From NCBI GenBank assembly GCA_963668025.2, contig CAXXTH010000023.1, positions 192,001 to 256,000 of the forward strand: DNA of 64,000 nucleotides. Direction: 5' to 3'. Under the pieces are notes generated by a model. That model worked only from the letters and a program-made list of their open reading frames with translations. It was not told the origin of the DNA and searched no databases. The DNA comes from Candidatus Hydrogenedentota bacterium. GTDB lineage: Bacteria > Hydrogenedentota > Hydrogenedentia > Hydrogenedentales > SLHB01. Position numbers and translations under genes: made by a program. Shown here one piece after another: positions 3,067-57,189 of this stretch (the stretch's first letter is position 1; each line of letters begins with the position of its first letter).

Positions 3067-3199
3067 AACCACTAATAAACACCAAAGCTCTCCAATAATA
3101 CCCGTTCTGCTTTTCCACCGATTACACTGATGATGCCCAGAAAAAGTGCATAGCAGGAATGCCGCTTCCCATTGGTTTTGATTGGCGCTATTCGTGGTT
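3067..3199. repeat. Inverted pair of triple-repeat sites
   Basis: aaccactaataaacaccaaagctctccaat (3067-3096) versus the reverse complement of 3171-3199, aaccacgaatagcgccaatcaaaaccaat. Confidence 0.6.
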
Positions 3200-3204
3200 G
3201 GGAA

Positions 3205-3226
3205 GTAGGGTGGGGCTTGCCCCACC
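3205..3226 (+). repeat. REP-like palindrome, family 1 (GTAG-GGTGGGGCTTGCCCCACC)
   Basis: GTAG tetranucleotide followed by a GC-rich hairpin. Further copies at 5690, 25969 and 38725. Confidence 0.85.
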
Positions 3227-3517
3227 GCCCATGGATACACCTATATATACTTGGACATATCTATTTGTTATGGAAACATTTCTCAGGAAAACCCTTGCAA
3301 GAAAAGGGTGCAGCTCTGTTATTACCGCTCCATTCGCCTTGCCGAGAGATAGCCGCAACTTATTTGGAGCCGTTCTTGGGCGCACGGATGAACCAACATA
3401 CATGGTGGATTTGCCCCACCGGCTAATAGCATCCGTTCTATAAAACCCCGTAAACTACCTCCTTGTCATTCCCGCGAAAGCGGGAATCCAGTGCAAATTC
3501 TCTGGATCCCCGCGTTC

Positions 3518-5356
3518 GGGCCTGTCGATTAAGCAGCCGCCTCGATAGGGTATATCTCCACCGCATCGACAGGAATGCGCCGGGGATGCCGATTCGACGT
3601 TATTCGTGGGAAAAAAGCATAGGCTACGGCTCTAGCTGCGGCATGAAGCCCCGCCAGGACCGTGTTTACGCCAGGATGGCCGCCTTGGGGGAAGCCGGTG
3701 GCCATGTTTGCCTTGCGGGCCAGAAGTTTTTTGAGGGTATACGCGGTGCAAATCCAGGACCAGTCGCACCGGACTTTCTCCAGGCCGCGCCGGGCGAAGC
3801 GGCGGATGCCCATGCACGACTTGATGACGCCGAACAATCCTTCGATCCCCGGGGCGCGTTTCTTGTAGATGGCCCGGCCTTCTTCGGTCTTCATGCGCTC
3901 GTCCGCGGCCTCGCGCAGCGGTTCGTGTTCGTCGCGGGTGATGGTCCGGTGCGTGGCCTTTCCTTTGATGCATTGCCCCGCCAGCGGGCAGCCGGGGCAG
4001 GCTTCGCATTGGTAGGTGGCGTATGAAACGCCGTCTTTGTCCGTGCCGTGTTTCGAGGCCGCCATCTCGTGGCCCATGGGGCAATGGTAGGAGTCGGCTT
4101 GTTCGTCGTACACAAATGCGGTGCGGGCGAACTGGCCGCCTTGTTTGGGCAGGCGTTCCACCGCTTCTTGGGCCACGGGAAGCGCGGGCTCGGGGCGTTG
4201 AGCCGGATTGTCCGCCCCAGAGGCCGAGCGGGTGGGCATGTAGGCCTCTATCCCTTGGGCCTCAAGGGCTTCGAGCACTTGGCCCGCGGCAAAATTGCCG
4301 TCGGCGGCGATTGCGCAAGGCTTCTCGCCCGTAAGGGCTTCAACGGCCTCCACCGCCGGGCAAACGGCGCTGGCCTCGTCGGAACCCGCCAGCACATCAT
4401 CATAGAGGATAGCGCCTGTTTGCGCGTCAATCGCGGCCACGGGGGTGTAATTCGGCGCGTAGCCCCCTTCTTTGTTGGGGGTGATTTGGGAGTCCGGATC
4501 GCTCACGGGCACTCGGACGGGTTTGGCGTTCTTGCCATTGTGCTCTTGGGACTTCGCGTCTCGCCTGCGGGCGGCGTCGAGGGCTTTTTGAAGCTGTTTG
4601 CGTTTCGTTTCGAGCCGCGCGATTTCCTGGCTGGCCTTTTCCAACTGTTCCGCAACGTCTCCATCCGGCTCCATGCCCGCCAGAAACTCGGTTTCAGGAA
4701 GGGCTTGGGCATCATTGCGCCGCATTTCCTCCATCCGGCGGTCCAGTTCCCTTATAATCTTCTCGATGGTCCCGGCCGTGCGCGCCCCGTGGCGGTCGCT
4801 GTCGGCCCGCAAACGGGTGCCGTCGATGAGCAATTCCAATAGCGGCTTCTCGCGCTCACCTAGCAGGAGCTGGGCGATTTGCCGCTTCAACTCGTCGATG
4901 GCTTTGGCGTGGCGCACCCGGAATTTGGCGAACGTGGAGTGATCGGGCGTGAACCCTTCAAGGAACCATATGAAATCCAGGTGCTTGCACGCCGCCATTT
5001 CCAGCTCGCGCGACGAACGCACGCGGTGCATCAGCCCGTACAGGATAGCTCCCGCCAGGTAATGTGGATGGATCGGCGGCTGGCCAACGCCCACATAGGC
5101 AGCCTCCCAAGCGCTCCAATCCAGTTCATCCAAAATCCGTGCGAATATCCGGATGGGCGCATCCGCCGGGAGCATCTCGTCCAGATACTGGGGATACAGC
5201 ACCATTTGATGCCGCTGCGCCTTCGGAGTGGCGAATAGAATGTCTCGTGCGTTCATGTGGGTTTCCCTGGTGACACCAATAATAAATTCTATTCTACTAG
5301 AAATCGAGTTATATGTCTATATAAATTCTACCCCGGCGCACTACATCGACAGGCCC
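3518..5356 (-). mobile_element. IS1182-family insertion sequence, complete
   Basis: 12-bp perfect terminal IR GGGCCTGTCGAT (3518-3529 and 5345-5356). 4-bp target duplication GTTC (3514-3517 and 5357-5360). Confidence 0.92.
3529..5256 (-). CDS. IS1182-family DDE transposase
   Basis: N-terminal GQPPIHP...LYG...SSRELE...PDHSTFAKFR (DUF772-like), IDGTRLRA, ADGNF, Cys cluster CPMG...CEACPGCPLAGQC, YKKRAPGIEGLFGVIK. Confidence 0.93.
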   Translation of the reverse strand: MNARDILFATPKAQRHQMVLYPQYLDEMLPADAPIRIFARILDELDWSAWEAAYVGVGQPPIHPHYLAGAILYGLMHRVRSSRELEMAACKHLDFIWFLEGFTPDHSTFAKFRVRHAKAIDELKRQIAQLLLGEREKPLLELLIDGTRLRADSDRHGARTAGTIEKIIRELDRRMEEMRRNDAQALPETEFLAGMEPDGDVAEQLEKASQEIARLETKRKQLQKALDAARRRDAKSQEHNGKNAKPVRVPVSDPDSQITPNKEGGYAPNYTPVAAIDAQTGAILYDDVLAGSDEASAVCPAVEAVEALTGEKPCAIAADGNFAAGQVLEALEAQGIEAYMPTRSASGADNPAQRPEPALPVAQEAVERLPKQGGQFARTAFVYDEQADSYHCPMGHEMAASKHGTDKDGVSYATYQCEACPGCPLAGQCIKGKATHRTITRDEHEPLREAADERMKTEEGRAIYKKRAPGIEGLFGVIKSCMGIRRFARRGLEKVRCDWSWICTAYTLKKLLARKANMATGFPQGGHPGVNTVLAGLHAAARAVAYAFFPRITSNRHPRRIPVDAVEIYPIEAAA

Positions 5357-5689
5357 GTTCGCGGGGATGACAGGCAGGCGGTTTTGCGTTATTTCTTCAA
5401 TACGTACACATGATAATTCTTCCAGGAGCGGTAATAACAGAGTTACACCCTAAGAAAACAACGTTTTACCAGATAGTACGAAGCAAAAAAACGGTATGAT
5501 CATTGCCAATGTTTGCCTCTCGAAACGGTGTTCAGTCCATGATATGGTGAATAGCGTCTACAGAAAAACCTCGTACTACTAACAAACAATATCTTGTTTT
5601 CTTGCATATATTTTCTGTGTAAGTCAAATAGAATCAAATTGTTATAGCATACCTTTTAAATAGTGCATTAGTTGGCTCTTCCTTTGATT

Positions 5690-5782
5690 GGTGGGGCAAG
5701 CCCCACCCTACCCCTCGAAATTTTAGTGTGTTTAGTGTATTTCGTGGTTAAATCTGGATCTTTGGTTGCGGCTATGCCGCGC
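5690..5782 (-). repeat. Composite repeat: REP family 1, triple 9-mer, and TTTGGTTGCGGCTATGCCGCGC hairpin
   Basis: Same order and nearly the same sequence as 25969-26058. Confidence 0.85.
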
Positions 5783-5883
5783 TAGGTTCGTAGTGAAAAA
5801 TCCGGCTCTTCAAATTCTGATAAAATGAACCGCTACATGGTAGTCTCCCCAAAAAGGGTGTCCCAAAGGGACAACCCGCCACA

Positions 5884-5913
5884 ACAAAGCGAAGCGGCCT
5901 CAATGAGGCCGCT
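5884..5913 (-). terminator. Probable intrinsic terminator of the surface-protein/pilin operon
   Basis: Hairpin agcggcctc-att-gaggccgct followed by tcgctttgtt on the minus strand, just after the stop at 5942. Confidence 0.5.
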
Positions 5914-5941
5914 CAAGTATTGCGCTATATGCTTGCGCACG

Positions 5942-7030
5942 TTATCCCTCTTGATTGAAGATCACCGGGCCGAAACCGCGCGTGCCATCCGGCAGGAGCG
6001 TCAGATCAGTTTCCGGAGTGACGGATACCGAATTCAGGCTGTTGGCCTCTTTCTTGCGCCGCGCCTGGTAATCGAAATCAAATTTGCCGTTGCCGTCCGC
6101 ATCGCGCGTGGCCAGGTAATAGGTGCGCAACGCAAGGGCCTGATACGGGCTGGCTTTAGCGTCATTAGTAGGCAGCGAATCGATAAATTTTTTTTCTAGC
6201 GATGTGGTGCTTGCCGCAGTAAGATCCGGTGACTCAAGCCCAGCAAATGAGCCTTGCGGCCCTGCCGATATCAGCACATAGGCATCGTAACGCGGCGCAA
6301 CCAAAGTCTTAATGTATTTACCCAAATTGCCGTTTGTTTGATCAACTTCCTCGCCTCTGGGCCAGATACTGCCATTCCAGCCATAATAATTGGTGGTGCC
6401 TTCGACAGTAAAGTCGGGTTTTAGCTTAATAAGCCCTTCCAGGCGCTTGAACGTATCGATATTCACCGGAGCATACAGATAGGGAAGATCACCTTCTTCA
6501 TAATCTTGGTAGTTGGAAGTAGGATAGATTTTAAATAAATGATCATTCTTCGGGTTGTTATTGACGAAACTCATGAACGGCTCTACGGGAGAGTACTGCA
6601 ATCGGGGAATAACCTTAGGCAATTGCAATAAGTCGCTATACCGGTCATATTGCTCTGTCGAGCCATACAGGTTTAGCGCGCCCATATAGGGGATGAAGTT
6701 GTACATCAACGGGCTGTTTGTATTGTTCCACGTGACACCGTTTTTATCCGTTCCGCCAACCCACTTATGGGTGGTTGTATTAAACGTGGGCTGGGTTTCA
6801 TGGGAATACCAGGTCCGGAAGCCGTAGGCAAGCGGATAGGTATTGTTTTCGGCGTAATAGGCGGCCATGCCGTTGCGGATCGAGTTGAAGTCCGCGGTGA
6901 CATCCGCGAGATTGGCCCGCTCGATGACTCCCGGCAATGCGGAAGCGGTGATGCCCGCCAAGATGGCGATAATGGCGATCACGGTGAGCAGCTCGATGAG
7001 CGTGAAACCGTAGGTGCGGCGAGTTCTCAT
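5942..7030 (-). CDS. Prepilin-type N-terminal cleavage/methylation domain protein (pilin/pseudopilin-like)
   Basis: MRTRRTYG|FTLIELLTVIAIIAILAG class III signal. GGAGG ribosome-binding site upstream. Confidence 0.9.
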   Translation of the reverse strand: MRTRRTYGFTLIELLTVIAIIAILAGITASALPGVIERANLADVTADFNSIRNGMAAYYAENNTYPLAYGFRTWYSHETQPTFNTTTHKWVGGTDKNGVTWNNTNSPLMYNFIPYMGALNLYGSTEQYDRYSDLLQLPKVIPRLQYSPVEPFMSFVNNNPKNDHLFKIYPTSNYQDYEEGDLPYLYAPVNIDTFKRLEGLIKLKPDFTVEGTTNYYGWNGSIWPRGEEVDQTNGNLGKYIKTLVAPRYDAYVLISAGPQGSFAGLESPDLTAASTTSLEKKFIDSLPTNDAKASPYQALALRTYYLATRDADGNGKFDFDYQARRKKEANSLNSVSVTPETDLTLLPDGTRGFGPVIFNQEG

Positions 7031-7138
7031 GGGTAATTAACCTCCAATTGGGACAAGGCGGCGCTTCGCGCGCCACACCGGCCCCCGCTACACGGCATGC
7101 ATGCAGGAAGGCCGCTGGCCCGCCTGCCGCGCCGCCGA

Positions 7139-7519
7139 TTAATTTAAGGCGCGCTTATATGCGGCCAACAGGAAAGCTCCACCCAGGAGCAGGACGATGG
7201 AAAGCGGGGCCCATGCCAGCGGGACCGCCTTGCCGTCTTTTGTCGTGCCGCCTTCGAGCCAATTCTGGACCAGCTTGGCGTCGAGCAGGTTCACAATGCC
7301 GTCTTCATTGACATCGGCGGACCAGAAACTGCCTTCCGGCAACACGGCGGCCCCAACGGCTACCTGGTTGATGAGTTTCACATCGGCGGAAGTCACCACG
7401 CCATCCGCGTTGGCGTCGCCCTTCAATGCGCCGATCGGCGCATTGTCAGCCGCGCAGGCCATGCCCGCAAATCCCATCACCAACATGCCCGCCAGCAATA
7501 CGATCCCAATCTTGCCCAT
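7139..7519 (-). CDS. Small secreted dockerin-domain protein with C-terminal TM anchor/sorting signal
   Basis: Signal peptide; paired dockerin repeats GDANADGVVTSAD and ADVNEDGIVNLLD; tail VPLAWAPLSIVLLLGGAFLLAAYKR. Start set at ATG 7519 (GAGGAG upstream). Confidence 0.85.
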   Translation of the reverse strand: MGKIGIVLLAGMLVMGFAGMACAADNAPIGALKGDANADGVVTSADVKLINQVAVGAAVLPEGSFWSADVNEDGIVNLLDAKLVQNWLEGGTTKDGKAVPLAWAPLSIVLLLGGAFLLAAYKRALN

Positions 7520-7599
7520 CGCTGCATTACTCCTCGGTTTAGTATGCATTACCTATCGCTATTCCGGCGCACGGTGCAGCCGCGCGCCGGATTCGAGCC

Positions 7600-9969
7600 T
7601 TATTTACGGGCGTCCTTGCGCGGCGACATGCATACCGCCGCAGCGCCAGCCAAAGACATCGCCAAGGCCAGCGCAATCCAGCCCAGCGGCACCGGCACGC
7701 TGTCCGCCGAATAAGGATTGCTCCCTATATTCCACTCTTTCTCATCCGAAAATCCGTCGTCATCGCTATCGAGGTCGAGGAAATTCGGCAATTCATCGCC
7801 ATCTACATTCGGGCCTTCCGCGACGTTGTTTTCATATTCATCGCTGATGCCGTCATCATCGCTGTCGAGATCGCGGAAATTCGGGATGCTGTCCGCATCG
7901 GGATCGCCCGAGCCTTCCTCTAGGTCAGGAATCGTGTCGCTATCGCTGTCCGAATCCCGGAAATCCGCCACGCCGTTGGCGTTGGTGTCGGGCGGATTGG
8001 TGGGCGTCGGCGCGCCTTCGATGGCATCCGAGATCGAATCGTCATCGCTGTCCGTATCGAGATAATCCGGCGTTGTATCGCCATCGGTATCAATCGGCGT
8101 ATTGGGATTTGGCCCCATTTCGGCGCTATCGGGGATGCCGTCGCCGTCCGAGTCGCCGGTGCTGCTACTGGCGGAAACCACCAGATTCACCGCCGCACCT
8201 GGAACGGCGTCCTCTCCGGCGTCGGGGTCTTGAGAGAGCACCTGGCCGATGGGCTTCGTCGAAGATTGATATGTGACCGTTCCCACGACCAAGCCGCTTG
8301 CGGCGATGGCGTCGCGGGCAGCGGTTTCGTGCTGGCCCACCACATCAGGCACGGGCACTACGCCCGAGCCGGACGAGACGGTGATGTCGACAGCGGTTCC
8401 CGGCGCAACGGATGCGCCGCTCGAGGGTGTCTGGCCGATGATTTCACCCGCAGGCTCGGCGCTGGCCTGATAGTAGGTGCTGCCGACATAAAGGTAAACC
8501 GCAGAAAGGGTTGCGGCAGCCGTATCCTCTTGTGCGCCAATGAGTGCCGACACCGTGGTCGAGCCTGGCGATAGAGGCGTACTGGCGGCGCTGGCGGGAT
8601 TGCTGCCCTTGAAGTATTCCATCAGGTTGGAATAGTTATCGCTGTCCATATCCCCGAGGGGGCCATTGACGCCTAAAATGCCCGAACCCGCCGTCGAGCT
8701 AAGCCCGAAAGTGGCCTCCCAGTCATCCGGCATACAGTCGCCGTCTACGTCCGTCCGGCGCAAACCCGGCGCTAGGATGTAATCGAGACTTTCCTCTGAA
8801 GTGGAACTGCTGGTGGCGGCCGTGGCGGTGATATACATGCCGGGGAATTTGCTGGCTACATCGCCCGCTAACGTCCATGTGCCATTCGCTAACGCGGTGG
8901 CGGCGCCGATGTACCCCGTCAATTGGGGATGAGCGCCCGCAAGGTAGGGATCCACGTAGACTTGGACGCTGCTGAGCGCCGGGGCAATACCTGTGACCGA
9001 ACCCAAAGCAAGGTTCGTTGGCTGTACGGGCGGAGTGCGATAGCCATCTTCTTCATGCCAATTGATGGCCACGCCCACACCGGAGCCGTCGTCGATGTGG
9101 TGAATGGAATTGCCTGCTATATAAAAGGTGCCGGTAGCGTCCTCGAACGGATCGCCTACCTGTACGCCCGCGTACTGGGCATATGTGATCGTGTTTCCGC
9201 TTACATTGGCGTTTGAAGTAAGGCCACGCAGTACAATCGCGTACTCGCTTCGGGAACTCAACGCGGGAATAGTTCCGTTTGCATCCATACCGAACACATT
9301 ATTGGAGATCGTGGCGCCGGTGAAACTGCGCAACAGGATGTCGGCGCTTGGCAGCACGGCAGTGCCCAAATTGCTATAGAAGGTGCAGCCCGTGATGGCG
9401 ATGGTGCTGTTGGCCACATTGTCCGCGGGGAAGGGCTGGGTGGATATGCCAGACTGCTGGAGGCTGCCATGGATGATGCAATTGGTGATGGTGGTGTTGC
9501 TGGCCTTGGTGATGTATACGCCGCACAATTTCGGGGAGGCAATCTCCACATTTTCAAGCGTGACATACGAACAATTTTTTAGGTTGAACGCATGGCTTTT
9601 CGCGCCGGTCACCTTCAAATTGCGGAACACATATTTCGCGGCCCCATCTTCAAACTGGAACATTGCGGCCGGCAAGGAAGCGGAGCCGTCGATCACGATC
9701 GTGTGGCCCGTGCCATCAATCGTGACGGCGGTAGTGTTGACTGCCGTAAAGGCCAGCGTGTTTGCAAGGGAGATCGTGTAATTCGCTTGGAAGTTGATCG
9801 TATCGCCCGCGGCGGCGGAGGCGATAGCCGCCCGCAGGCTGCCGACGCCGCTATCCGCGTTGGTGGTGACGGTGATAGTGGCGGCGTGGGCGGGCGCGAA
9901 ATTGAGCATGCAACTGGCCATGATTCCCACGAACAACAACAAACGTGGCTGTTTCGACATCTTTCGCAT
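7600..9969 (-). CDS. Large surface protein: right-handed beta-helix, PASTA domains, Asp-rich Ca-binding (thrombospondin type 3-like) repeats, C-terminal TM anchor
   Basis: Signal peptide then [20 protein letters not shown]; parallel beta-helix repeats; PASTA-like VPDVVG...[11 protein letters not shown]...VNLVVS; many DSDGDGIPD-type repeats; tail [26 protein letters not shown]. Start set at ATG 9969 (GAGAGG upstream). Confidence 0.85.
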
Positions 9970-10276
9970 GTTCCTCTCGAGTCTGGATGGAAGCCTGGCT
10001 CCCATCAACCGCACGGGCATACCCCAGACGCCCGCATGAAACACCGCCGTCAGAAGTAAAAAATGCTCGGCCTGTATCTTGCCGCCACTTCTGCATCGAG
10101 CCGAAGGCCCAGACACATTGATTATAACATAATGTGCAAGGCCTGAAGAAGCGTGTTTTACTACAAAACATGTATCTTGTCTACCAGATAGACGCCTCCT
10201 ACTGCAAGCCTAATCTGATTTCCACCCAACGGATATACTGGACACGATGATATCAGGTTTATCTTGAATCCTATTT

Positions 10277-10529
10277 CGCGCAAAGCCGCTAAGCCGCAAA
10301 GGCCTATAAAAGACGAACAGCAGGAATATTTCAGCACATCCTAACAATACTTGATTCATTTGCACTACTATCAGGCAAAACGTTGTTTTCTTGCGAAGAT
10401 TCTCAATGCAAATCCAGTCACATCATGAAGTTGCATATCGCGGCTCTTCACATGGGCGGGACGCCCATGCTACGGGAGCTAACAAACGGAGAAAGATATA
10501 TTGGCGTTCATTCGCGTCCATTCGCGGTA
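10277..10529. repeat. Triple-repeat sites in inverted orientation enclosing a REP family 2 copy
   Basis: cgcgcaaagccgctaagccgcaaag (10277-10301); catgggcgggacgcccatgctac (10451-10473); attggcgttcattcgcgtccattcgcggt (10500-10528). Confidence 0.65.
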
Positions 10530-10721
10530 AAAAAGGCTTGCCGTTTGGTTGCGTCCATGCCTCACGGTGGAATGCAGCGCATTCCTTAACGGACACATTC
10601 CCCGCTTTACACCGCCGGGCAAAACATGATATTCTGCTTTTTAACATCCTGCAAATCCAGGAACTTCGGTTTGGGGAACAAACTGATGCATGCTCAATTA
10701 TTCGAGCAAAGGGATACCTGC

Positions 10722-13700
10722 ATGCTCTTTCGACGAAAGAGCGCAGTGGGAACTCTTATGTTTTTGGTGCTCTCGAACCACGCTTCCGCCCAAACGGAGC
10801 CTGCGGCGTCTTGGATTTTCCCGCCTGTGGCGCTGATTTTTGCCATTGCCGTGCTGGCCGCGCTAGCTGGCATCCTTCTATTCGTTCATATCCGCCATTT
10901 CAAGGCCACGGAAGCGTATAAGCAAGACCTTGAACGGCTAAAAGCCGCCGCGTACTCCGGCAAAGTAGGCCTATGGGAACTCCGCCCCACGGAGCGCACC
11001 TTTCACGCCGATGACAGTTTCAAAGCCTTGCTGGGCTATATGCCGGATGAACTGGACGCCCAGTTGCGCACATGGTACGGCATGCTGTGGCTGGATGATT
11101 GGCGCAAAATGCGCGGCTCCCCCCGGCGGGGTCCAGGGAATTCCGAGCCCCGCTCGGAATTTGAGCATCGCATGCTCCATAAAGATGGGAGCGTACGCTG
11201 GTTTTTGACCAGTGCGTCACTGGCTGGGCGCAATGCGGGCCATCCCATGCGCGTGCTTGGCACCAGCATGGATATCACGGAACGAAAATCCGCGGGCGAA
11301 GCGTTGCGGCAAGCGGAAGAACGCCTGCATGCCATCATTGAGAGTGCGGATGACATGATTTATTTCCTTCCGCTTTTTCCCGGTAAAATGCAACTGCTCA
11401 ACGATGCGTGCGTACGCGTGACGGGCTATTCGCGGGAGAAGCTGGAAACCTATCCCGAGCTGTGGGAGCAAATCGTCCATCCAGACGATAGGAATGCTTC
11501 GTTTCTATTCCATAAAACACATTTGGCAGGATGCGCCCGGCACGAGAAAGAATACCGCCTCCGGTCCCAAACCGGTGAATGGAAATATCTGCATTCGCTC
11601 ATGATCGGCGCGCGTGACGCTCGAGGCAAGTACGTGGGGTATTACTGCATCGACCGCGAACTGACCCAGATGTACAAAGCCGAAGAAGCCTTGCGCGCAA
11701 GCGAAGCCCAACTCCGCGCTATTTTCGAACACGCCGCTTTGGGAATTGTGCGGGTCACGCCAGATGGAGCCATTAAAGAACTCAATCCCGCCATCACGAA
11801 TATGATTGGCTATACCCAAGAAGAAATCTTCGGCACATGGATATCGGACCATCTGATCGATGGCATTTCGGAAGAAGAAGAACGGCAACTGGATGAAATG
11901 CGCGCAGGCGTCCAGCTCCATATCACCATGGAAAAACGGCTGCGGCGAAAAGACGGCCGGACCGTTTGGAGCAAACTATCCGCGTCATGCGTCCAGCGGC
12001 CAAATGGAGAACCAGACTTCTTTATCGCACTAGCTGAAGATATCACCGAGCAGCGGGAAGCGGAAGTGCTGTTTACGATGCTGCGTGATTTGGGCCTGGC
12101 GTTGGGCTCCATCCGGAGTCTAGGCGAAGTGCTCGATCGCGTATTGGAAGCCATATGCAGTTTGGAAGCGGTCAGTGCGGGCGGCATCTACTTGATCGAG
12201 CCCGGGACAGGGCACCTGAAGCTCATGGCGCACAAGGGGATTTCAGAAACATTCGCCACTCAAGCCGCCAGCATCCAATCCGGCCCAATCGAAATATGGC
12301 AAGCAGTCCCTTGGAGCCCCCTGTATTTATCCATGGACGCTATCCCCGGCCTGGAAGAACAGGCGCAGTTGCGCCATGAGGGATTCCGCTGCGGCGCGAT
12401 GATCCCTATTCATCATGAAGGCATCATGCTGGGCTCCATTACTGCCGCCTCGCGCGTATACAGTAATTTCCCACGCAATGCGCGAAGCTCTCTCGAGTCC
12501 ATCGCCAGCCATGTGGGCAGCGTCATCACACGGGTGCGCACCGAAGAAGCCCTTCGGGAGTCACAAGAGCGAGTGCGGGCTTTCCTTGATAATGTCCAAG
12601 ACACCATCTATTTTTTATCGCTAAACGGCGATATGCGCATCCTGACTGGTGGATGGAAAAACGCAGCGGATTATCCATCCGCCATCAGCGAAAATGATTC
12701 CATGGCCTGGCGCGCCTGCATCCATCCCGATGATCTACTCTTGTTTGAACAACACCCAGCCAACCGGCATAGCTATGAACTCGAATACCGGATGAAGAAC
12801 AAGCGGGGCGAATGGCGCTGGTATCAATCCCGCCGGAATGCCGCCAAAACAAACGGCGACCCCGCGACCGGTTTTTATTGTGTGGACCGGGATATCACCC
12901 GGACCAAACAAATTGAAGAGGTATTGCGCGATACGGAGCGCCGGCAAGCGGATATTATCAGCTTCCTGCCAGACGCCACTTTTGTGATCAATGAAGAAAA
13001 GCGGGTCATCGCCTGGAACCGGGCCATGGAAACCCTCACCGGCGTGCCCGCCGATGAAATGCTCCGGCAAGGCGATTGCCGGTATTCCATTCCTTTTTAT
13101 GGCATTCGCCGCCCAATGCTGATTGATATGGTGCATGAACCCATCGAAGCCATCCGCCCGTTCTACCCAGATTTGCATCTATCGAATGGCATCCTAACCG
13201 CATCAAGCGCTCCACGTGAACTCAAGGACGGGAAACGGCATTTGTTGTCCACGGCGACCCCGTTGTATGACGCCGGGGGAAACCGGATTGGCGCCATCCA
13301 GTGCATTCGCGATATCACCGTAGTGAGAGAAGCAGAAGCCGAACGTGAGCGTCTCGAACTCCAGATGCAACAAGCCCAGAAGCTCGAAAGCCTGGGCGTG
13401 CTGGCGGGCGGCATTGCCCATGATTTTAATAATTTGCTGATGGGCGTCCTCGGCAACGCCAGCATGGCGCTGTTGGAGATGGACCTGAACTCGCCAGCCC
13501 GGAACAGCATCGTGCAAATCGAGACTACCGCCCAACGCGCCGCGGAACTCACCAAGCAGCTTCTGGCGTACTCGGGGCGCGGCAAGTTTGTGGTGGAACC
13601 CATCAACTTATCGATGTTGGTGCATGAAACCGCCCATCTGCTGGAAGTATCCATCTCCAAAAAAGCCGCTATTCGGTATCATTTGGCGGAAGACCTTCCC

Positions 13701-14519
13701 GCTATCGAGGCAGACGCCTCCCAAATCCGCCAAGTCATCATGAACCTGATCACCAATGCCTCCGACGCCATCGTGAGTGAAAATGGGACAATCACCATCA
13801 CTACGGGAGCTTGCCATTGCACAAAAGAATCCCTGCGGGATACCTATTTGGCGGATGACCTGAAAGCGGGCAAATACGCCTTTGCCGAGGTCGCCGATAC
13901 CGGCATGGGCATGGATGAAGAAACCATTCAGCGCATTTTCGATCCGTTTTTCACGACCAAGTTTACCGGCCGCGGCTTAGGATTGGCCGCGGTTCTTGGC
14001 ATAGTTAGAGGACATGGAGGTGCTTTGAAAGTGGATAGTGAACCCGGACGAGGATCTGTATTTCGCGTTTATTTCCCCACATGTGACAGGCAGCCCATTC
14101 GTTCCGCGCCGCCTGCCGCCAGTATGGATGCCTGGCATGGAAGCGGGCTTGTGTTATTTGCAGACGATGAAACAAGCGTGCGTTCTTTGGGGGAACGCAT
14201 CTTGAAGCGCGCCGGTTTCAGTGTGGCCGCGGCCGCCGACGGCCAGGAAGCCGTGGAGATTTTCCGGGCGCGCGCCAGCGAAGTCAAGCTGGTGCTGCTC
14301 GATATGACCATGCCAATTATGAACGGGGAAGAAGCTTTCCGGGCGATGCGCGATATCCGGGAAGACATCCCGATTCTGTTATCGAGCGGATATAATGAAC
14401 AGGACGCCGTGCAATCGTTCATGGAAGGCGGACTGGCTGGCTTCATCCAGAAGCCCTACCGGCCTTCCGAGCTCATTACATTGATCCGCAATGTGCTATC
14501 GAAATCGGCTACGACATAA
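10722..14519 (+). CDS. Multi-PAS/GAF hybrid sensor histidine kinase with receiver domain
   Basis: Several PAS/PAC repeats (HPDD, DITERK), GAF, HisKA LAGGIAHDFNNLL, HATPase DTGMGM...FDPFFTTKFTGRGLGL, C-terminal REC (LLDMTMP, IQKP). Start uncertain (10626-10758). Confidence 0.95.
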   Translation: MLFRRKSAVGTLMFLVLSNHASAQTEPAASWIFPPVALIFAIAVLAALAGILLFVHIRHFKATEAYKQDLERLKAAAYSGKVGLWELRPTERTFHADDSFKALLGYMPDELDAQLRTWYGMLWLDDWRKMRGSPRRGPGNSEPRSEFEHRMLHKDGSVRWFLTSASLAGRNAGHPMRVLGTSMDITERKSAGEALRQAEERLHAIIESADDMIYFLPLFPGKMQLLNDACVRVTGYSREKLETYPELWEQIVHPDDRNASFLFHKTHLAGCARHEKEYRLRSQTGEWKYLHSLMIGARDARGKYVGYYCIDRELTQMYKAEEALRASEAQLRAIFEHAALGIVRVTPDGAIKELNPAITNMIGYTQEEIFGTWISDHLIDGISEEEERQLDEMRAGVQLHITMEKRLRRKDGRTVWSKLSASCVQRPNGEPDFFIALAEDITEQREAEVLFTMLRDLGLALGSIRSLGEVLDRVLEAICSLEAVSAGGIYLIEPGTGHLKLMAHKGISETFATQAASIQSGPIEIWQAVPWSPLYLSMDAIPGLEEQAQLRHEGFRCGAMIPIHHEGIMLGSITAASRVYSNFPRNARSSLESIASHVGSVITRVRTEEALRESQERVRAFLDNVQDTIYFLSLNGDMRILTGGWKNAADYPSAISENDSMAWRACIHPDDLLLFEQHPANRHSYELEYRMKNKRGEWRWYQSRRNAAKTNGDPATGFYCVDRDITRTKQIEEVLRDTERRQADIISFLPDATFVINEEKRVIAWNRAMETLTGVPADEMLRQGDCRYSIPFYGIRRPMLIDMVHEPIEAIRPFYPDLHLSNGILTASSAPRELKDGKRHLLSTATPLYDAGGNRIGAIQCIRDITVVREAEAERERLELQMQQAQKLESLGVLAGGIAHDFNNLLMGVLGNASMALLEMDLNSPARNSIVQIETTAQRAAELTKQLLAYSGRGKFVVEPINLSMLVHETAHLLEVSISKKAAIRYHLAEDLPAIEADASQIRQVIMNLITNASDAIVSENGTITITTGACHCTKESLRDTYLADDLKAGKYAFAEVADTGMGMDEETIQRIFDPFFTTKFTGRGLGLAAVLGIVRGHGGALKVDSEPGRGSVFRVYFPTCDRQPIRSAPPAASMDAWHGSGLVLFADDETSVRSLGERILKRAGFSVAAAADGQEAVEIFRARASEVKLVLLDMTMPIMNGEEAFRAMRDIREDIPILLSSGYNEQDAVQSFMEGGLAGFIQKPYRPSELITLIRNVLSKSATT

Positions 14520-14605
14520 GCTCAACCTATTGATAGCGCATTTCGAAAAAAACACTTTAAATGGAAGAACGATGTACTATACACGCGGCTGCGCGTTGCC
14601 GTTCG

Positions 14606-16474
14606 TCACTTGGTTGACGCACCACGCAGCCAATGCTCGAGCATGAGTAGCGCCCAGAGGTGATGGCCCAAATTGGCGCGCCGTTCAACATGATCACGGC
14701 GAAGGGCGCGCACGGCATCGAGCTGAAAAAACGACCCAATACGCGCATCGGAAGCAAGCGCCACCTCATCAAAATGCCGGAGCAGTTCACCGCGAAACCA
14801 GCCGTGGATGGGTATGGCGAAGCCCTGTTTGCGCTGGCGGAGCAGTTCGGGCGGCAGGAAGCCGCGCAAGGCGTGCTTGACGAGTAGTTTCGATGTGCGG
14901 CCATGCCATTTAAGATTAAAGGGTACGGTCACCGCGAACTCGACGATGCGGTGATCGAGCAGCGGCACGCGCAATTCCAGTCCCACTGCCATGCTCATAC
15001 GGTCCACCTTCGTCAAAATATCATCCGGCAAATACATGGCCGTGTCGTGATACAGCAAACGATTTTCTACATCCAATGAAGCGCAAGCGGCGCTGTGCTC
15101 CTCGAAACGGTCCACGGCGCTTGCTGCGATGGAGCGGGCGAATTCCGGCGCGTACAAGCCCGCACGCTGTTCATCAGTGAAACAGGTGTGGCGCTCTCGG
15201 AAAGCCTCGATAGGCCCAAGGAGCGCGCCGCGATGAAACCGGCGCAGCTTGTCCACGAGGGGAGAGCCTGGCGCAAACCGCAGGGCGGCCCCGATGAGGA
15301 CGCGCGCGGGAGCGGGCATGCGGGCATAGGCGGCGCTACGAAGGGCCATATGGGTCCACGTATAGCCCGCGAACAATTCATCCCCGCCATCCCCCGAGAG
15401 CGCCACAGTCACCTGTTCGCGGGCAACTTTAGACACCAGCCACGTGGGGATGGCCGAGGAATCGCCGAATGGTTCACCGAAATGCCGCACGAGGCGTTCC
15501 GCCGCTTCCGCGCCATCAGGGTGCAGCACGGCCTCCGTGTGGTCCGTGCCGAAATGCCGCGCAGCGATACGGGCGTAACGCAGTTCATCGTAGCGGGCGT
15601 CGTCGAAGCCGATTGTGAATGTCTTGACTGGCCTCGATGCGTGGCGCGCCAGCATGCCCACCACGGCGCTGGAATCGAGTCCGCCGCTGAGAAGCGCTCC
15701 CAGGGGCACATCGCTCACGCGCTGGAGCCGCACGGCGCTGTCCAGCAATTCCATATACCGTTCCGCCGCGCTATCCAGGGTCCAGGAAGCATCCAGCGCC
15801 CACTGCAAGCGCCAGTACGGCTCGATGGATATGCCGCCTTTTTCCAGGACAAGCTTTTCACCGGGCCGCAGCTTGCGAATATGGCGGTATATGGTGTCTG
15901 GCGCGGGGATATACAAAAACGCTAGGTAAGCGTCGAGCGACGCTGGCTCAATACCGCCCGTGTTGATTCCCGAACGCAACAGCGCATCCAGCTCGGACGC
16001 GAAAGCGAAGGTTCCATCGCGAAAGGCATAATAGAGTGGCTTGATCCCCAGGCGGTCGCGCGCCAGCAACAGCCGCTGGCGCGGCATGTCATACAATGCG
16101 AAAGCGAACATGCCATTCAGGCGTTCGAGCACTCCGTCGCCCCAGGCGCGATAGCCATGCAGCAGGACTTCCGTGTCGCTCTGGGTGCGAAACACATGCC
16201 CCCGGCCCTCGAGTTCCTGGCGCAATTCGCGGTAATTATAAATCTCTCCATTGAACACCACAATCAGCGCGCCATCTTCCGTGGCCATAGGCTGGCGGCC
16301 TTGCTCGATGTCAATAATGCTGAGGCGGCGCATGGCCAGGATCGCCGAACCGCCATTCCACAGGCCGCCATCATCCGGGCCGCGATGGCGCAAGGCTTCA
16401 TTCATCACGGCAACGGCAAGCTCGGAGGCCATCCGTCCGGGTTCCGTGTGGGCGAGGCCGCAAATGCCGCACAC
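14606..16474 (-). CDS. asnB: Asparagine synthase (glutamine-hydrolysing) family amidotransferase, polysaccharide-associated type
   Basis: MCGICG N-terminus, HRGPD, RRLSIID, FNGEIYN, LSGGLDSS, SGDGGDELFAGY. Confidence 0.93.
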   Translation of the reverse strand: MCGICGLAHTEPGRMASELAVAVMNEALRHRGPDDGGLWNGGSAILAMRRLSIIDIEQGRQPMATEDGALIVVFNGEIYNYRELRQELEGRGHVFRTQSDTEVLLHGYRAWGDGVLERLNGMFAFALYDMPRQRLLLARDRLGIKPLYYAFRDGTFAFASELDALLRSGINTGGIEPASLDAYLAFLYIPAPDTIYRHIRKLRPGEKLVLEKGGISIEPYWRLQWALDASWTLDSAAERYMELLDSAVRLQRVSDVPLGALLSGGLDSSAVVGMLARHASRPVKTFTIGFDDARYDELRYARIAARHFGTDHTEAVLHPDGAEAAERLVRHFGEPFGDSSAIPTWLVSKVAREQVTVALSGDGGDELFAGYTWTHMALRSAAYARMPAPARVLIGAALRFAPGSPLVDKLRRFHRGALLGPIEAFRERHTCFTDEQRAGLYAPEFARSIAASAVDRFEEHSAACASLDVENRLLYHDTAMYLPDDILTKVDRMSMAVGLELRVPLLDHRIVEFAVTVPFNLKWHGRTSKLLVKHALRGFLPPELLRQRKQGFAIPIHGWFRGELLRHFDEVALASDARIGSFFQLDAVRALRRDHVERRANLGHHLWALLMLEHWLRGASTK

Positions 16475-16475
16475 G

Positions 16476-18815: not shown

Positions 18816-18861
18816 TTGTCCCCTGTATGCGGAAAAATCTAAACCACTTGGAGAAGTAGGA

Positions 18862-22086: not shown

Positions 22087-22440
22087 TTTGGCCTCTTCGT
22101 CAGAATTTGTGGGTGGATAGAGTTTCCGTACCGGAAAACCAAAGACGGGAAGGCAGCCGGGTGGGTGAAACATGGGCATATGCATTTGTCTTTTTTCACC
22201 ACGGGGACACGGGGAAGCACGGGGAACGCATACTATACCCCATGGCATTCAGCATTATAGTCGTTGCAGTTTACCCAGAATGTTAAGTCCTATTTCTTGG
22301 ACATTTGTTTCGTGAACGCCTTTCGTTCCCCGTGGCTCCCCGTGTCCCCGTGGTGAAAAAAGCTTCTTTGAACAGGATTGCCACTGCCACATGTTATTCC
22401 CAGTTCTCAAACACCCACAAATTCTCACGAAGACTCCAAA
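22087..22440. repeat. Nested inverted repeats (MITE-like shell around an inverted triple-repeat pair)
   Basis: Outer 29-bp IR at 22087-22115 and 22412-22440 (3 mismatches). Inner 38-bp IR at 22191-22228 and 22324-22361 (2 mismatches). Confidence 0.85.
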
Positions 22441-24009: not shown

Positions 24010-24213
24010 GAAGGATTGAGTCCACGGATGCATGCAGATGGGCGTAGACGATGGTGATAAAGCTATCACTTATAGGTGGCGATTGTGCACACTCGCACCT
24101 TAATCTCCGGAGTTTCTACCACGAGCACGAAGGACACGAAGAATTTGACCATCTCATCCCGAAACGACTGTAGCATCGGGCGGTAGAGTATCCGCCTTGT
24201 CCATATGCTCTGT

Positions 24214-25233: not shown

Positions 25234-25536
25234 GGTACGATCTATTTCCCGCACTTAGCTATGTAGCGAATTTCAGCCTTTCCCGTTCCTGGCGCTCATC
25301 CAGACAGTAAACATGGCATGGTGTCCCGACTTTTCTATTTGTACGGTTATCTTATATGGACTACAGTCTGACCATCAAGAGAAATATACCCTCACTGGGA
25401 TCGATGAGGCATGGAGCTCTTGGCCGTTGTCATTGTTGTTCCATTACTTGCATGTAATCATGCTCTCGGAAAGCCGGCTCCACGATCAAATTCCTTCATG
25501 TTCTTCATGTATTTGGTGTATTTCGTGGTCTAAAAA

Positions 25537-25719
25537 TTACGCCTGCTCTTCCCGAAACACCTACCGCGCCGCTTCCAGGGTTTTGTCGAGTTCGGCGTTG
25601 CCGTGGGCGGCGCTCATGAAACAGGCCTCGAATTGGGACGGCGCGAAGTAGATACCCCGTTCGAGCATGCCGTGGAAGATCCGGGCGTACCGCTCCGTGT
25701 CCGATTGGGTCGCGTCAGC
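25537..25719 (-). pseudogene. hemL: 3' fragment of glutamate-1-semialdehyde aminomutase
   Basis: Manual translation [59 protein letters not shown] matches the HemL C-terminus (PSQFEA). No upstream part of the gene is present. Confidence 0.85.
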
Positions 25720-38724: not shown

Positions 38725-38802
38725 GTAGGGTGGGGCTTGTCCCACCGCTCAAGGCGGCTAACAAAAAAACAAATCACGCCCATCCTATAAATCCTGTCAA
38801 AA
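38725..38802. repeat. REP family 1 copy plus degenerate triple 9-mer
   Basis: gtagggtggggcttgtcccacc (38725-38746); atcacgcccatcctataaatcctgtcaaaa (38773-38802). Confidence 0.7.
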
Positions 38803-38881
38803 AGAAAACCGCCCGAATCTTTTAGGGACAAGCTTTTTTCGTCACGCCTGTTGTTTCCCCGTTCAGTTGTCACACCGGAAT

Positions 38882-44800: not shown

Positions 44801-45489
44801 GGCAGCGCTTGCTCGATAGGATAGATAGCTGGCTGTTCCCGGAAAATCCCATCCATGCGGTCCGTAAACATACGGTAGGCGCTTTGCGCTTCGAGAGGCT
44901 CATCATTGAAGAGCTCCCGGAACGGGCGGAGCGCTGGATTCTCCGTGGCCACACGGAGCAGGGACGCCTCCCGGGCGGCAGCCTCTACATGCGGCGCGCC
45001 ATCCGTCTCACCCGCAAGAAAGGCGTCCGCTACTTCAGCGCCTTGGCGCACCTCGGGGGGCGGGTAAAGCGCCACAAACGCCTCGATCTGGCGCGCCGCT
45101 TGTTCCTGGCCAAACCGGGCGCGAATTTGCGCCAGCGTTTGGCCTAGCGCTCCTTTATTCTGTTCACGGCAATACAAGTTGAATACATAACGTAAAATCT
45201 CATGCAACAAGGCAAACGCCTGCAAATGGCCTGGCCGGGCTGGATACTTTGCGGCTTCCTCCGGCGGCTTCGCTTTTTGCAGCCGGTATGCGAGCTGGCG
45301 CATCAGCGGTATCCGCGCATGTTCATCCAGCGCGGCGGCGTCCGCGGCCAAGTCATCCAGGCCAATCCGGCTCCATGCCTCCTGGGAAACGGGGAAACCC
45401 AGTGGGCAATACGGCCGGCTCGACGCCTTAGGCTGGTCCATTATATTCTCCGCATCTGGCCGCGCACCCTGTTCATCCACGTGCATCAC
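41884..45489 (-). CDS. Large alpha-amylase family (GH13) glycoside hydrolase
   Basis: DMVPNH, IRFDAAM (nucleophile Asp), LLAEAFW (acid/base Glu), FMNNPDE. Confidence 0.9.
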   Translation of the reverse strand: MMHVDEQGARPDAENIMDQPKASSRPYCPLGFPVSQEAWSRIGLDDLAADAAALDEHARIPLMRQLAYRLQKAKPPEEAAKYPARPGHLQAFALLHEILRYVFNLYCREQNKGALGQTLAQIRARFGQEQAARQIEAFVALYPPPEVRQGAEVADAFLAGETDGAPHVEAAAREASLLRVATENPALRPFRELFNDEPLEAQSAYRMFTDRMDGIFREQPAIYPIEQALPDCLRAPIAAAPESLEGQLEYIREHWAALLPPWLLQRLLAVRDALREETQMRGFGPPLLEVMGFGKGLGGFYGYPEPERFTPDADWMSRVVLIAKIAYVWLHQLSKQYQRPIARLDEIPDAELDRLARYGFTGLWLIGLWERSSASEDIKKRMGNPEAAASAYSLYDYTIAWELGGEEAYLNLKARAWQRGIRLASDMVPNHVGIHSKWVIEHPDWFVQTSYPPFPSYQFNGPDLCPDDRVGLYIEDGYWSHSDAAVVFKRVDHWTGDTRYIYHGNDGTNMPWNDTAQLNYLIPEVREAVIQTILHVARLSPIIRFDAAMTLAKKHFQRLWFPLPGEGGAIPSRSQCSMTKEAFDAVFPEEFWRQVVDRVQEEVPDTLLLAEAFWLMEGYFVRTLGMHRVYNSAFMNMLKMEENLKYRMTVKNVLEFSPEVLKRFVNFMNNPDEMTAVEQFGNGDKYFGVAMMMATMPGLPMFGHGQIEGFTEKYGMEYRRAYWDETVNDEMVRRHEREVFPLMRRRYLFSGVEQFAFYDFIHPDAYVDENVFAYSNRAGGERSIVIYNNSYNSTRGRLHTSTAFNQGSVEVKDLVHRTLVQSLGLRTEPGVFYIFRDHHENLEYIRSGRSLAEDGLYLELRGYQYHVMMDFEEVIDTAHVWAEVAARLGGGGVPNIRRFYKEILVAPMLDAFSNVAGVEMLRQLVSAMGDKTKADAACRRFGKVLGLYLDITEAEVGVTVEKEKILGAAMEEMAALLQFEKRLEATAPRKAEADVVFAHMPEQREDGLLFWRIPIIWTMVHHLEEVLAVHSGAGSRGHWLDEWLLTDPIIKSFSALGIDEWRARDDTRLMMLLTSHTKGLLALFETEPALLVEEMLDDPIVREFLRVNEYQGITYLNKEQLERAMGWLLFTAALSILSDSELTGKQRSALLASRQQCVERIMDAAVESGYQTVIMLELLSSQIGPICPICQIGPISPISQS
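41896..41949. repeat. Tandem 9-bp repeat, six GATC-initiated units
   Basis: gatcggact gatcggacc gatctgaca gatcgggca gatcgggcc gatctgcga. Confidence 0.9.
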
Positions 45490-45755: not shown

Positions 45756-45767
45756 TTTTTTTTGTTT

Positions 45768-56315: not shown

Positions 56316-56324
56316 GAAAGGGGT

Positions 56325-56362
56325 CTGGGGGAAACCCTCTTTTCAAAGAGGGTTTCCCCCAG
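56325..56362. repeat. Long perfect intergenic hairpin
   Basis: ctgggggaaaccctcttt-tc-aaagagggtttcccccag (18-bp arms) with no U tract. Confidence 0.8.
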
Positions 56363-56387
56363 CAGGCAAACCACGAAAGGCATACGC

Positions 56388-57050
56388 GTGCTGAATATCT
56401 TTGACCGTATACGCCATCGCTTCTCGGCGTTATACCGCCGTTCGCGTGAACAGAAGTTCCGCTTGTTTCAGGATTTGGCTGCGCTCGAACCGGGCGCGAC
56501 GATCCTCGATGTGGGCGTGGATGTAGGCGAGAACAATCCCTTTGAAAACCTTTTGGAGCAACAGCTCAGCGACACCTACCGCATCGTGGCCGTGACTTTG
56601 GGCAATCCCGCGCATTTGCGCGCCAAATACCCGAAGGTGCGTTTCGTACGCGCCGACGGCTGCGCGCTGCCGTTTCGCGACGATGCCTTCGACACCATGT
56701 TTTCGAACGCGGTCATCGAGCATGTGGGACGAGAGGCGAACCAGCGCCGTTTCACCGAAGAAGCTGTCCGCGTGGCGCGCACGGGATTCATCACCACTCC
56801 CAACTTCTGGTATCCCATCGAGTTGCACACCACGCTGCCCCTGGTCCATTATCTGCCTTGGGGCGTCCGGCGCTATGTTTTCCGGGCGCTGGCGGGACGT
56901 GAGAACGAGGGCTACATGTCGCGTATCCGGCTGTTATCCACGCGCGCGTTCCGGCGGCTTTTTAAGGGTTTGGCGGAAGTACGCATCATACCCGTGCGCA
57001 CGACGTTCTGGCCGGAAACGCTCATCGCGTTCTTCACGCGGGAGAGATAG
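56388..57050 (+). CDS. Class I SAM-dependent methyltransferase
   Basis: ILDVG, ADGCALPFRDDAFD..FSNAVIEHV, TTPN. Confidence 0.92.
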   Translation: MLNIFDRIRHRFSALYRRSREQKFRLFQDLAALEPGATILDVGVDVGENNPFENLLEQQLSDTYRIVAVTLGNPAHLRAKYPKVRFVRADGCALPFRDDAFDTMFSNAVIEHVGREANQRRFTEEAVRVARTGFITTPNFWYPIELHTTLPLVHYLPWGVRRYVFRALAGRENEGYMSRIRLLSTRAFRRLFKGLAEVRIIPVRTTFWPETLIAFFTRER

Positions 57051-57130
57051 GGGCAAGCATGTGTTTGAATGGCGTAGAAAGCTTTATCAAATATCGTTAA
57101 TAAGGAATCGCAAATAAGAACAGAAAACCT

Positions 57131-57189
57131 CTTTGTGCCTTAGTGTCTTTGTGTTGAATTTTCTAACACAAAGGCGCTAAGACACAAGG
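57131..57189. repeat. Back-to-back pair of triple-repeat sites
   Basis: ctttgtgccttagtgtctttgtgtt (57131-57155), 9 bp, aacacaaaggcgctaagacacaagg (57165-57189). Confidence 0.8.

Follow-up and report, generated by a model that had tools for sequence, protein, structure and literature searches.

The window analysed here is a 64,000-nt stretch of contig C23 (G000:C23:192001-256000) from the genome of a Candidatus Hydrogenedentota bacterium (assembly of 6.15 Mb in 24 contigs, 93.75% complete), and it carries a series of short triple-repeat sites, hereafter arms, together with a gene for a DUF4062 protein, an insertion sequence (IS) and two families of hairpins resembling repetitive extragenic palindromic (REP) sequences. 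An original prediction, made from the letters of the window, interpreted fourteen of these sites as the ends of small gene cassettes, empty or loaded, that are mobilised in trans. The sites are probably the inverted arms of a miniature selfish element whose complete form carries a GxxExxY gene and most of whose copies in this genome are gene-less, and the cassette-end interpretation proves largely right in kind.

On direct reading, the predicted architecture is present at all 14 positions (Table 1). Blind scans recover seven of them (5722, 10277, 10500, 22191, 22324, 25995 and 57131), six degenerate sites (3067, 3171, 24022, 24118, 25494 and 38773) fail the strict scan, and BLAST identifies copies elsewhere in the genome of the arm or module at 24118, at 25494 and of the 3067/3171 module. 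In the complete module at 22190-22362, each arm is composed of CTTTTTT followed by CACCAC and three CACGGGG units.

Table 1. Arms, modules and the enclosed gene, numbered from the first letter of the window
Position	Strand	Feature	Context or basis
3060..3099	+	Degenerate arm CACTAAT / CACCAAA / CTCCAAT after CCGGATTCTGAA	Left arm of ~190-bp module
3169..3200	-	Degenerate arm CACGAAT / CGCCAAT / AACCAAT	Adjoins REP-type hairpin 3209-3226
5721..5753	-	Single arm CACGAAATA / CACTAAACA / CACTAAAA	Between REP hairpin 5690-5707 and box TTTGGTTGCGGCTATGCCGCGC 5759-5782
10273..10303	+	CGCAAAG-family arm CGCAAAG / CGCTAAG / CGCAAAG	Direct reading and blind scans
10500..10534	-	CGCGAAT-family arm with A-run	Box 10543-10567 after it, second REP type 10451-10469 before it
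22125..22440		Outer repeat holding the nested module	Own 29-nt inverted repeats 22087-22115 and 22412-22440
22190..22362		Complete gene-less module	Arms 22190-22228 (+) and 22324-22362 (-), spacer 95 bp
24021..24055	+	Degenerate CACAGATG-type arm CACGGATG / ..GCAGATG / ..GACGATG	Direct reading only, missed by scans
24113..24143	+	CACGAAG-family arm CACGAG / CACGAAGGA / CACGAAGAA	Left edge of AT-rich DUF4062 segment
24214..25254	-	DUF4062 gene, 346 aa	Pfam PF13271, E = 3.7e-29
25489..25537	-	Five-unit arm CACGAAATA / CACCAAATA / CATGAAGAA / CATGAAGGAA, T-run tip	Right edge of DUF4062 segment
25994..26028	-	Single arm CACTAAATA x3	Between REP hairpin 25969-25986 and conserved box 26035-26059
38773..38805	-	Degenerate arm, GACAGGAT / ACAAGAT family, T-run tip	Direct reading
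57130..57190		Hairpin, tips inward, CACAAAG family	Arms 57130-57155 (-) and 57165-57190 (+)

The strict scan, which demands three CRC+4 units whose cores differ in no more than one letter, returns 380 sites genome-wide against 72 in the reversed sequence, and the pattern CRCDRAD taken three times returns 271 matches against 4 (300 against 4 in a second genome-wide count). These arms share one grammar, in which a T-run and (A)CCAC or CCGC precede three units made of CRC and a purine-rich 4-nt core, the commonest cores in the strict scan being GAAG, GAAT, TAAA, AGAG, AAAG, GAAA, GGGG, CAAG, TAAG and GGAG. When 330 arms are aligned on the first unit, the T-run occupies positions -9 to -4 and is followed by any nucleotide, A at -2 (63%), C at -1 (70%) and then CRC-R-A-A-G, and this table matches 199 arms that lie beside GxxExxY genes in other phyla. 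Successive units are spaced by 9 bp (300 instances), 8 bp (213) or 10 bp (149), with a polarity that a single arm of 331 breaks by having its first spacing longer than its second; the same polar rule is replicated with one exception among 199 arms in other phyla and one among 74 in other Hydrogenedentota, and it looks like a geometry set by a protein. The arm family is real and far above chance. A match to a known repeat or terminator family, on whose absence the original prediction had staked itself, was found neither by Rfam at the gathering threshold, which returns two tRNAs only in the window and leaves the modules without a match, nor by a terminator scan of 21900-26200, which flags no arm, the arms having a T-run before the stem and an A-run after it. 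Triple-unit arms are likewise without a description in the literature searched (supplements not covered).

Elsewhere in the genome, arms accompany genes of the GxxExxY family, for which the PF13366 profile gives 15 matches, spread over about 12 loci that all lie outside the window. Arm modules lie on at least one side at 12 of the 13 PF13366 places inspected, usually in the order hairpin, gene, hairpin; one of these 12, C10:1219644, has flanks that are armless apart from a degenerate CAGGAT-type pair on the 3' side. By inspection, the families CGCGAAT, CACTAAATA/CACGAAATA, CACAGAG, CACAAAG, CGCAAAGG, CGCGAAGG and ACAAGAT each flank a PF13366 gene, and the GACAGGAT / ACAAGAT family flanks two, on C23 and C17. 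The CACGGGG family of the module at 22190-22362 has no PF13366 gene in the 93.75%-complete assembly. Since the same arm grammar brackets GxxExxY genes, the window sites are best read as gene-less derivatives resembling miniature inverted-repeat transposable elements (MITEs) or the REP doublets known as REPINs. The original prediction had mentioned similar repeats around GxxExxY and four-helix-bundle genes in other genomes, and this holds for both kinds of gene here. The single clear four-helix-bundle (23S_rRNA_IVP) gene, at C18:379096-379412, is split by a frameshift and is flanked by inverted arrays of GGGTCTA-type 7-nt heptads, unlike the 8-10-nt CRC units.

The association extends well beyond this phylum. 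In a sample of 80 GxxExxY loci from 15 other phyla, the two flanks share an inverted repeat at 67 loci, against 6 of 80 for shuffles, and triple units are found on both sides at 60; under the strict scan, a + arm lies upstream and a - arm downstream at 47 loci, this being the sole arrangement at 27 of them. The tip TT-A-A-CCAC is common to these arms, with C at -1 in 97% and A at -2 in 70%. Mapped on the protein tree, arm core type changes 27 times, compared with a mean of 51.6 and a minimum of 47 in 200 shuffles, and within the 80-locus clade it changes 16 times against 24.6, none of 300 shuffles being as low. Host phylum changes 39 times on the same tree, and from the clustering of arm types combined with these host changes it follows that gene and arms travel together and often change host. 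Within the phylum, relatives of a second paralogue carry CRCRRAG-type arms and the first clade CRCGRAW-type arms. One genome of the same family and another genus (G003) holds 39 PF13366 matches but 27 pattern sites; either its cores fall outside CRCDRAD or gene copies have spread without arms.

The GxxExxY protein (TIGR04256, 125 aa) is predicted, from sequence motifs and a structural model, to be a Cas4/RecB-like PD-(D/E)XK nuclease. In an alignment of 37 sequences, residues D70, E80, K82, Q94 and Y98 never vary, and we take them for the PD-ExK and QxxxY motifs that characterise nucleases of the RecB/Cas4 type. The AlphaFold model (pLDDT 94.7) is matched best in Foldseek by Cas4 SSO0001 (E = 1.9e-4), followed by lambda exonuclease, RecE and archaeal Hjc, and a sequence search of the PDB returns nothing significant, the best entry being T7 endonuclease I at E = 0.46. 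The family is large, with at least 7990 clusters at E <= 1e-10 among 8000 candidates scored, and is rare in the literature searched, where neither GxxExxY nor PDDEXK_3 appears in a title or abstract. We know of no transposition chemistry for it.

Whole modules, comprising two arms and their spacer, are multi-copy and typically 80-90% identical. Full-length other copies are found for 49 of 71 paired modules, with a median best identity of 90.6% and up to 25 copies each. By BLAST, the family of the module at 22190-22362 includes at least eight other copies at 79-89% identity, the 95-bp spacer included. The copy at C10:373.4 kb has the same spacer and right arm joined to a left arm of the CACAGAG family, and arms can therefore be exchanged. 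Additionally, the ~190-bp module at 3060 has three other copies in the genome (80-89% identity), the ~105-bp composite around the 5721 arm and the ~180-bp composite around the 25994 arm have many (85-95% and 80-89%, respectively), and BLAST returns many for the ~200-bp element at 10364-10561, while the arms at 24113..24143 and 25489..25537 match CACGAAG arms and CACTAAATA-type arms elsewhere. The module at 22190-22362 is itself absent from the second copy of its outer repeat, on C11, the missing segment being exactly 173 bp and running from CTTTTTT to AAAAAAG. The idea of cassette ends that occur both loaded and empty is in this way upheld: arms bracket GxxExxY genes in other phyla, and the window modules are gene-less, multi-copy and, in one case, present in one repeat copy and absent from the other. 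Purine-core arms are found at 0 of 11 related MBOAT loci in other genera, and arm placement is lineage-specific; the 25 relatives available all belong to other genera, at ~70% DNA identity, with no genome of the same genus among them.

The arms are organised in inverted pairs, and the excess of such pairing that had been anticipated is borne out genome-wide: 128 of 326 arms have, no more than 450 bp away, an inverted partner belonging to the same family (identity of 75% or more), whereas only 11 have a direct partner and the reversed control gives 3. Among the paired arms, 80 have their tips outward and 48 inward. Within the window, the four facing pairs originally named fare unequally. Only 22191/22361 is a good palindrome, its arms being 95% complementary over 39 nt, with a DNA fold z of -10.25 that none of 200 shuffles equals. 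The fold of the 3067/3199 region (z = +0.6) does not surpass that of shuffled sequence, and the arms of 10277/10500 and 24118/25529 are heterologous, those of the latter matching weakly. The pair 10277/10500 had rightly been singled out as exceptionally unlike, the arm at 10500..10534 being of the CGCGAAT family and not homologous to the CGCAAAG-family arm at 10273. The 57130/57165 hairpin has 26-nt arms that are 85% complementary, with a fold z of -5.84.

Scanning the genome and its relatives with the site profile, as had been proposed, recovers the family both here (~300 sites) and in 97 of 101 genomes of the phylum, with 0-549 pattern sites per genome and 6724 in total, compared with 0-13 per genome in reversed-pattern controls. 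GxxExxY is present in 84 of the 101 genomes, and its counts follow those of the sites with a Spearman coefficient of 0.69, or 0.58 after genome size is removed; genomes with GxxExxY (84) hold a median of 44.5 sites, and those that lack it (17) a median of 4.

These observations can be assembled into a mechanism in which the element would move at the DNA level. The shared tip may be the site of cleavage or joining, and the three helically phased units would be putative binding sites for the cognate GxxExxY nuclease, both roles being proposed by analogy with the usual logic of transposon ends, where a conserved tip is followed by repeated subterminal sites. GxxExxY proteins made from genes at other places in the genome would act in trans to mobilise the gene-less copies, and, after insertion, the hairpins would be co-opted or tolerated, the + arm often supplying the ribosome-binding site of the next gene. 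The window copies are gene-less and mostly old, and two families of REP-like hairpins and a conserved box of 22 nt are interspersed among them.

Several observations weigh against this explanation. The GxxExxY genes of this genome lie between two complete hairpins, whereas in most other phyla they lie inside one, and for about 60% of arms no partner of the same family lies within 450 bp. The comparison of 22190-22362 with C11 is the one clean empty/filled case among 96 modules screened by separate BLAST of left and right flanks, 12 of the 13 raw hits being array repeats. Because that comparison involves paralogous repeats rather than orthologous loci, a precise, possibly palindrome-stimulated deletion is an alternative to insertion. 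Inspection of 45 tip-outward modules reveals no consistent target-site duplication, and the C11 empty site permits an ambiguous reading as a 7-bp CTTTTTT/CTTCTTT duplication. Identities of 80-90% between most copies give no hint of recent bursts, the GxxExxY arrays excepted. A search for sequencing runs lists five, with no RNA among them. Contigs from four public runs, covering 5601-25600, break at the repeats and contain no allele that skips a module, the apparent joints being cross-mappings from other repeat copies; a metagenome scan for other strains, using a codon-degenerate pattern from the MBOAT C-terminus, gives 0 matches. The co-occurrence is also not specific, since counts of the control family Y1_Tnp correlate with site counts almost as well (0.62, partial 0.44), the genomes correlated are kin and not independent, and two genomes without a GxxExxY match (G076 and G042) nevertheless hold 77 and 76 sites. 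The search for a co-occurring nuclease, which the original prediction had suggested, therefore yields a candidate that correlates without being specific: the result is compatible with mobilisation by GxxExxY and does not single it out, because Y1_Tnp correlates too. Co-occurrence as proof of a GxxExxY enzyme was rejected on the same ground.

The rival explanation that survives best, although unlikely, holds that the hairpins are functional RNA elements (RNase III sites, mRNA 3'-end stabilisers or translational gates) maintained by selection between genes, by analogy with the excision of intervening sequences from 23S rRNA, and not mobile DNA. It draws on the location of the sites, of which 283 of 331 lie outside or at the edge of open reading frames (ORFs) in a genome of which a crude ORF set makes up 88.5%, and on the tendency of the purine-rich + arm to end at a start codon as a Shine-Dalgarno sequence, as at many GxxExxY loci and in the window, where the last unit CACAAGGAA of the 57165-57190 + arm is the Shine-Dalgarno sequence of an epimerase gene starting at 57193. 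Moreover, the 26-39-bp stems resemble the 28-bp stem cut by RNase III in the Coxiella intervening sequence (PMC4990558). RNA pairing kept by selection should favour G:U on the transcribed strand, but mismatches in stems between co-directional genes comprise 34 G:T and 32 A:C in 27 tip-outward hairpins, and 15 G:T and 9 A:C in 15 tip-inward hairpins, giving no RNA-level signal. The orientation of sites relative to flanking genes is similarly unbiased (97, 74, 58 and 50 in the four classes). The lack of a G:U excess and of an orientation bias favours a DNA-level element. Against the RNA explanation also stand the recurrence of modules with their spacers at 80-90% identity in unrelated contexts, the absence of arms from all 11 related loci in other genera, the nested module absent from the second copy of its repeat and the lack of an Rfam match. 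An effect at the RNA level may nonetheless arise after insertion.

It is improbable that the sites are instead true REPIN-type elements moved by a REP-associated tyrosine transposase (RAYT) or an IS200-family HUH (Y1) transposase, with GxxExxY as a frequent passenger only. This possibility gains from the Y1_Tnp correlation described above, from the presence of Y1_Tnp in the two site-rich genomes without GxxExxY (9 and 1 matches) and from the abutment of 25 of 51 TAAA and GAAA arms, including those at 5721, 25994 and 3169, on a GTAG-type REP hairpin. However, arms outside the TAAA and GAAA families lie next to a REP hairpin in only 6 of 280 cases, no REP hairpin or arm lies within 600 bp of any of the three RAYT-like genes, and the nine near-identical IS200 copies of this genome end in ordinary short hairpins unrelated to the arms. 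Furthermore, G043 has 186 sites and 10 GxxExxY matches with no Y1_Tnp match, G059 has 103 sites and no Y1_Tnp, and across 15 phyla the arms flank GxxExxY itself.

The IS200-type Y1 transposase genes (163 aa) number nine and have near-identical scores, and the three loci inspected are identical elements, for example at C21:34756-35112; one copy is inserted within the C21 GxxExxY array. Such near-identical copies suggest that this element has been recently active. The REP-like hairpins of the genome fall into two families, GGTGGGGC..GCCCCACC, preceded by GTAG and present in 109 copies, and CATGGGCG..CGCCCATG, present in 151, of which only the former is linked to TAAA and GAAA arms (25/51). In the window, REP-like hairpins lie at 3209-3226, 5690-5707 and 25969-25986, and also at 10451-10469 and 19258-19276. 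The conserved box TTTGGTTGCGGCYATGCCGCGC, 22 nt long with a small hairpin, comes after the tip of many - arms; it occurs at 5759-5782, 10543-10567 and 26035-26059, has 16 genome copies by the strict pattern, and finds near-exact 26-30-nt matches in several other genera.

An integron-like system, in which the hairpin module would be a recombination site and genes would be captured by a site-specific recombinase encoded elsewhere, is very improbable. Module-gene-module arrays at C21:32-38 kb, C23:332-335 kb and C8:159-161 kb recall such a system, as does the combination of variable arm letters with a constant architecture. The genome, however, contains no integron integrase (the best TIGR02249 match reaches 81.3 bits, the cut-off being 265), the modules are for the most part without an enclosed ORF, and the arms have a triple-unit structure, whereas attC sites have an R/L core-site layout. 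Furthermore, the only gene in the window proposed to be enclosed, that of DUF4062 (not a GxxExxY gene), is doubtful as captured cargo. It does lie between two arms, as predicted, and the predicted AT-richness is confirmed, GC being 0.38-0.50 in the segment and 0.57-0.67 in the flanks; the arms, however, are heterologous, and a full-length homologue in G093 is armless throughout a 4-kb locus except for one unrelated site ~1.3 kb away. The gene is single-copy in this genome, and 5 of the 101 genomes from the phylum contain homologues at E <= 1e-10. Its status as enclosed cargo is weakly supported, and it is not counted as demonstrated cargo because of the single copy, the heterologous arms and the armless homologue. 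Elsewhere, tandem paralogous genes for secreted or multi-pass membrane proteins of 431-556 aa are each separated by arm hairpins (C23:323174-328127, C18:137920-139657 and C18:216734-218550), and these arrays consequently look like module-gene-module repeats with ordinary genes. That the arms are immobile and offer a host regulator or nucleoid protein three helically spaced binding sites each is hardly credible: the phasing at 8-10 bp and the strictly polar spacing do look protein-imposed, but one genome holds many core families, the arms vary in their placement with respect to promoters and gene starts and are copied together with their spacers, and across phyla arm type goes with the GxxExxY gene and not with the host.

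The preferred explanation, a miniature element with a GxxExxY gene in its complete form, can be extended to a broader proposal that is decidedly tentative. GxxExxY proteins may be the mobilising nucleases of an unrecognised class of prokaryotic mobile element, characterised by a universal TTnACCAC tip and three helically phased, family-specific units, in which a minimal Cas4/RecB-type enzyme, rather than a DDE, HUH, serine or tyrosine enzyme, would act on hairpin or cruciform DNA; gene-less copies would number in the hundreds per Hydrogenedentota genome, and the intervening sequences with ORFs found in 23S rRNA would be a special case of this element, landed in rRNA. Among small-protein families still uncharacterised, GxxExxY is one of the largest, and its link to the arms makes its function testable, the arm architecture itself having hundreds of gene-less copies and being spread over at least 15 phyla. 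If true, the proposal would add a new enzyme class to the few prokaryotic mobilisation chemistries and could account for the origin of rRNA intervening sequences, a long-standing puzzle. The hairpins also matter for annotation and assembly: public-run contigs break at them, they serve as ribosome-binding sites and they give rise to false ORF starts.

Other features of the window lie close to the arms. An IS5/IS1182-type insertion sequence at 3506-5368, located between two arm-bearing repeats, encodes a DDE transposase at 3529-5256 (-) with DDE_Tnp_1_6, DUF772 and DDE_Tnp_1 domains, and is bounded by 24-nt inverted repeats (3506-3529 and 5345-5368) that are 92% complementary and unrelated to the arms. 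The original prediction named no candidate recombinase in the window; the window does contain this transposase, the ends of whose element are unrelated to the arms. At 25564-25725 (-) lies a 54-aa C-terminal remnant of glutamate-1-semialdehyde 2,1-aminomutase (HemL; profile positions 370-421 of 429), broken off at 25725 beside AT-rich repeat DNA; the intact hemL, at C10:343956-345218, is 82% identical to it in DNA over 164 bp and has arms near its 5' end. A 9-bp tandem repeat, GACAGATCG, occurs in ~5 copies at 41891-41946, at the 3' end of a gene for a 1201-aa alpha-amylase-domain protein (41884-45489, -); it is unpaired, and its letters are unrelated to the arms.

Among known systems, the GxxExxY-arm element resembles, in a broad sense, MITEs and REPINs, with dispersed copies of the whole unit. 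REPIN-RAYT systems (Bertels and Rainey, PMC3116915, PMC3337134) comprise REP doublets and a REP-associated tyrosine transposase and are described as mostly inherited vertically. In both systems short intergenic repeats form inverted, hairpin-forming doublets, copies without a gene number in the hundreds per genome, the repeats also flank a small gene of their own, and several families coexist in a genome, each tied to its own copy of that gene. In contrast, the flanked gene here is GxxExxY, a predicted Cas4/RecB-like nuclease and not an HUH Y1 transposase; the arm consists of a conserved tip and three phased units, whereas a REP is one imperfect palindrome with a GTAG head; and the GxxExxY gene and its arms extend over at least 15 phyla with frequent host changes.

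A second comparison is with the 23S rRNA intervening sequence of Coxiella burnetii that encodes S23p, which, according to PMC4990558, has a small ORF and a ~28-bp terminal stem and is excised by RNase III; its sporadic distribution is taken there to suggest horizontal transfer, and its origin is called unclear, with a mobile-element hypothesis mentioned. The likeness consists of a small ORF between terminal inverted repeats, as in the complete element, and of a sporadic distribution. Short tandem repeats in inverted orientation likewise border the S23p-family four-helix-bundle gene found here, those arms being built of 7-nt heptads, unlike the CRC-unit arms. Unlike the intervening sequences, no site lies in rRNA, the single 23S gene (C23:70266-73271) and its 6-kb locus containing no triple-unit arm, and the window copies carry no ORF.

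Bacterial MITEs such as the Correia elements of Neisseria and the enterobacterial ERIC elements are 100-300 bp long, intergenic, multi-copy and nested, with terminal inverted repeats, and can supply promoters or ribosome-binding sites and fold in mRNA. The modules share with them the 100-300-bp size, the terminal inverted repeats, the intergenic, multi-copy and nested occurrence and the capacity to supply ribosome-binding sites, and differ in the lack of an observed target-site duplication, in their internal triple periodicity and in the lack of a DDE transposase with matching ends. Finally, the ends of Tn7 and Mu combine a conserved tip with repeated subterminal transposase-binding sites that are roughly twice 7 nt in length. 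The arms likewise join a shared terminal motif to three repeated internal sites, in inverted ends with polar spacing, whereas their units are 7 nt long at 8-10 bp spacing and the candidate enzyme is a 125-aa nuclease rather than a DDE transposase.

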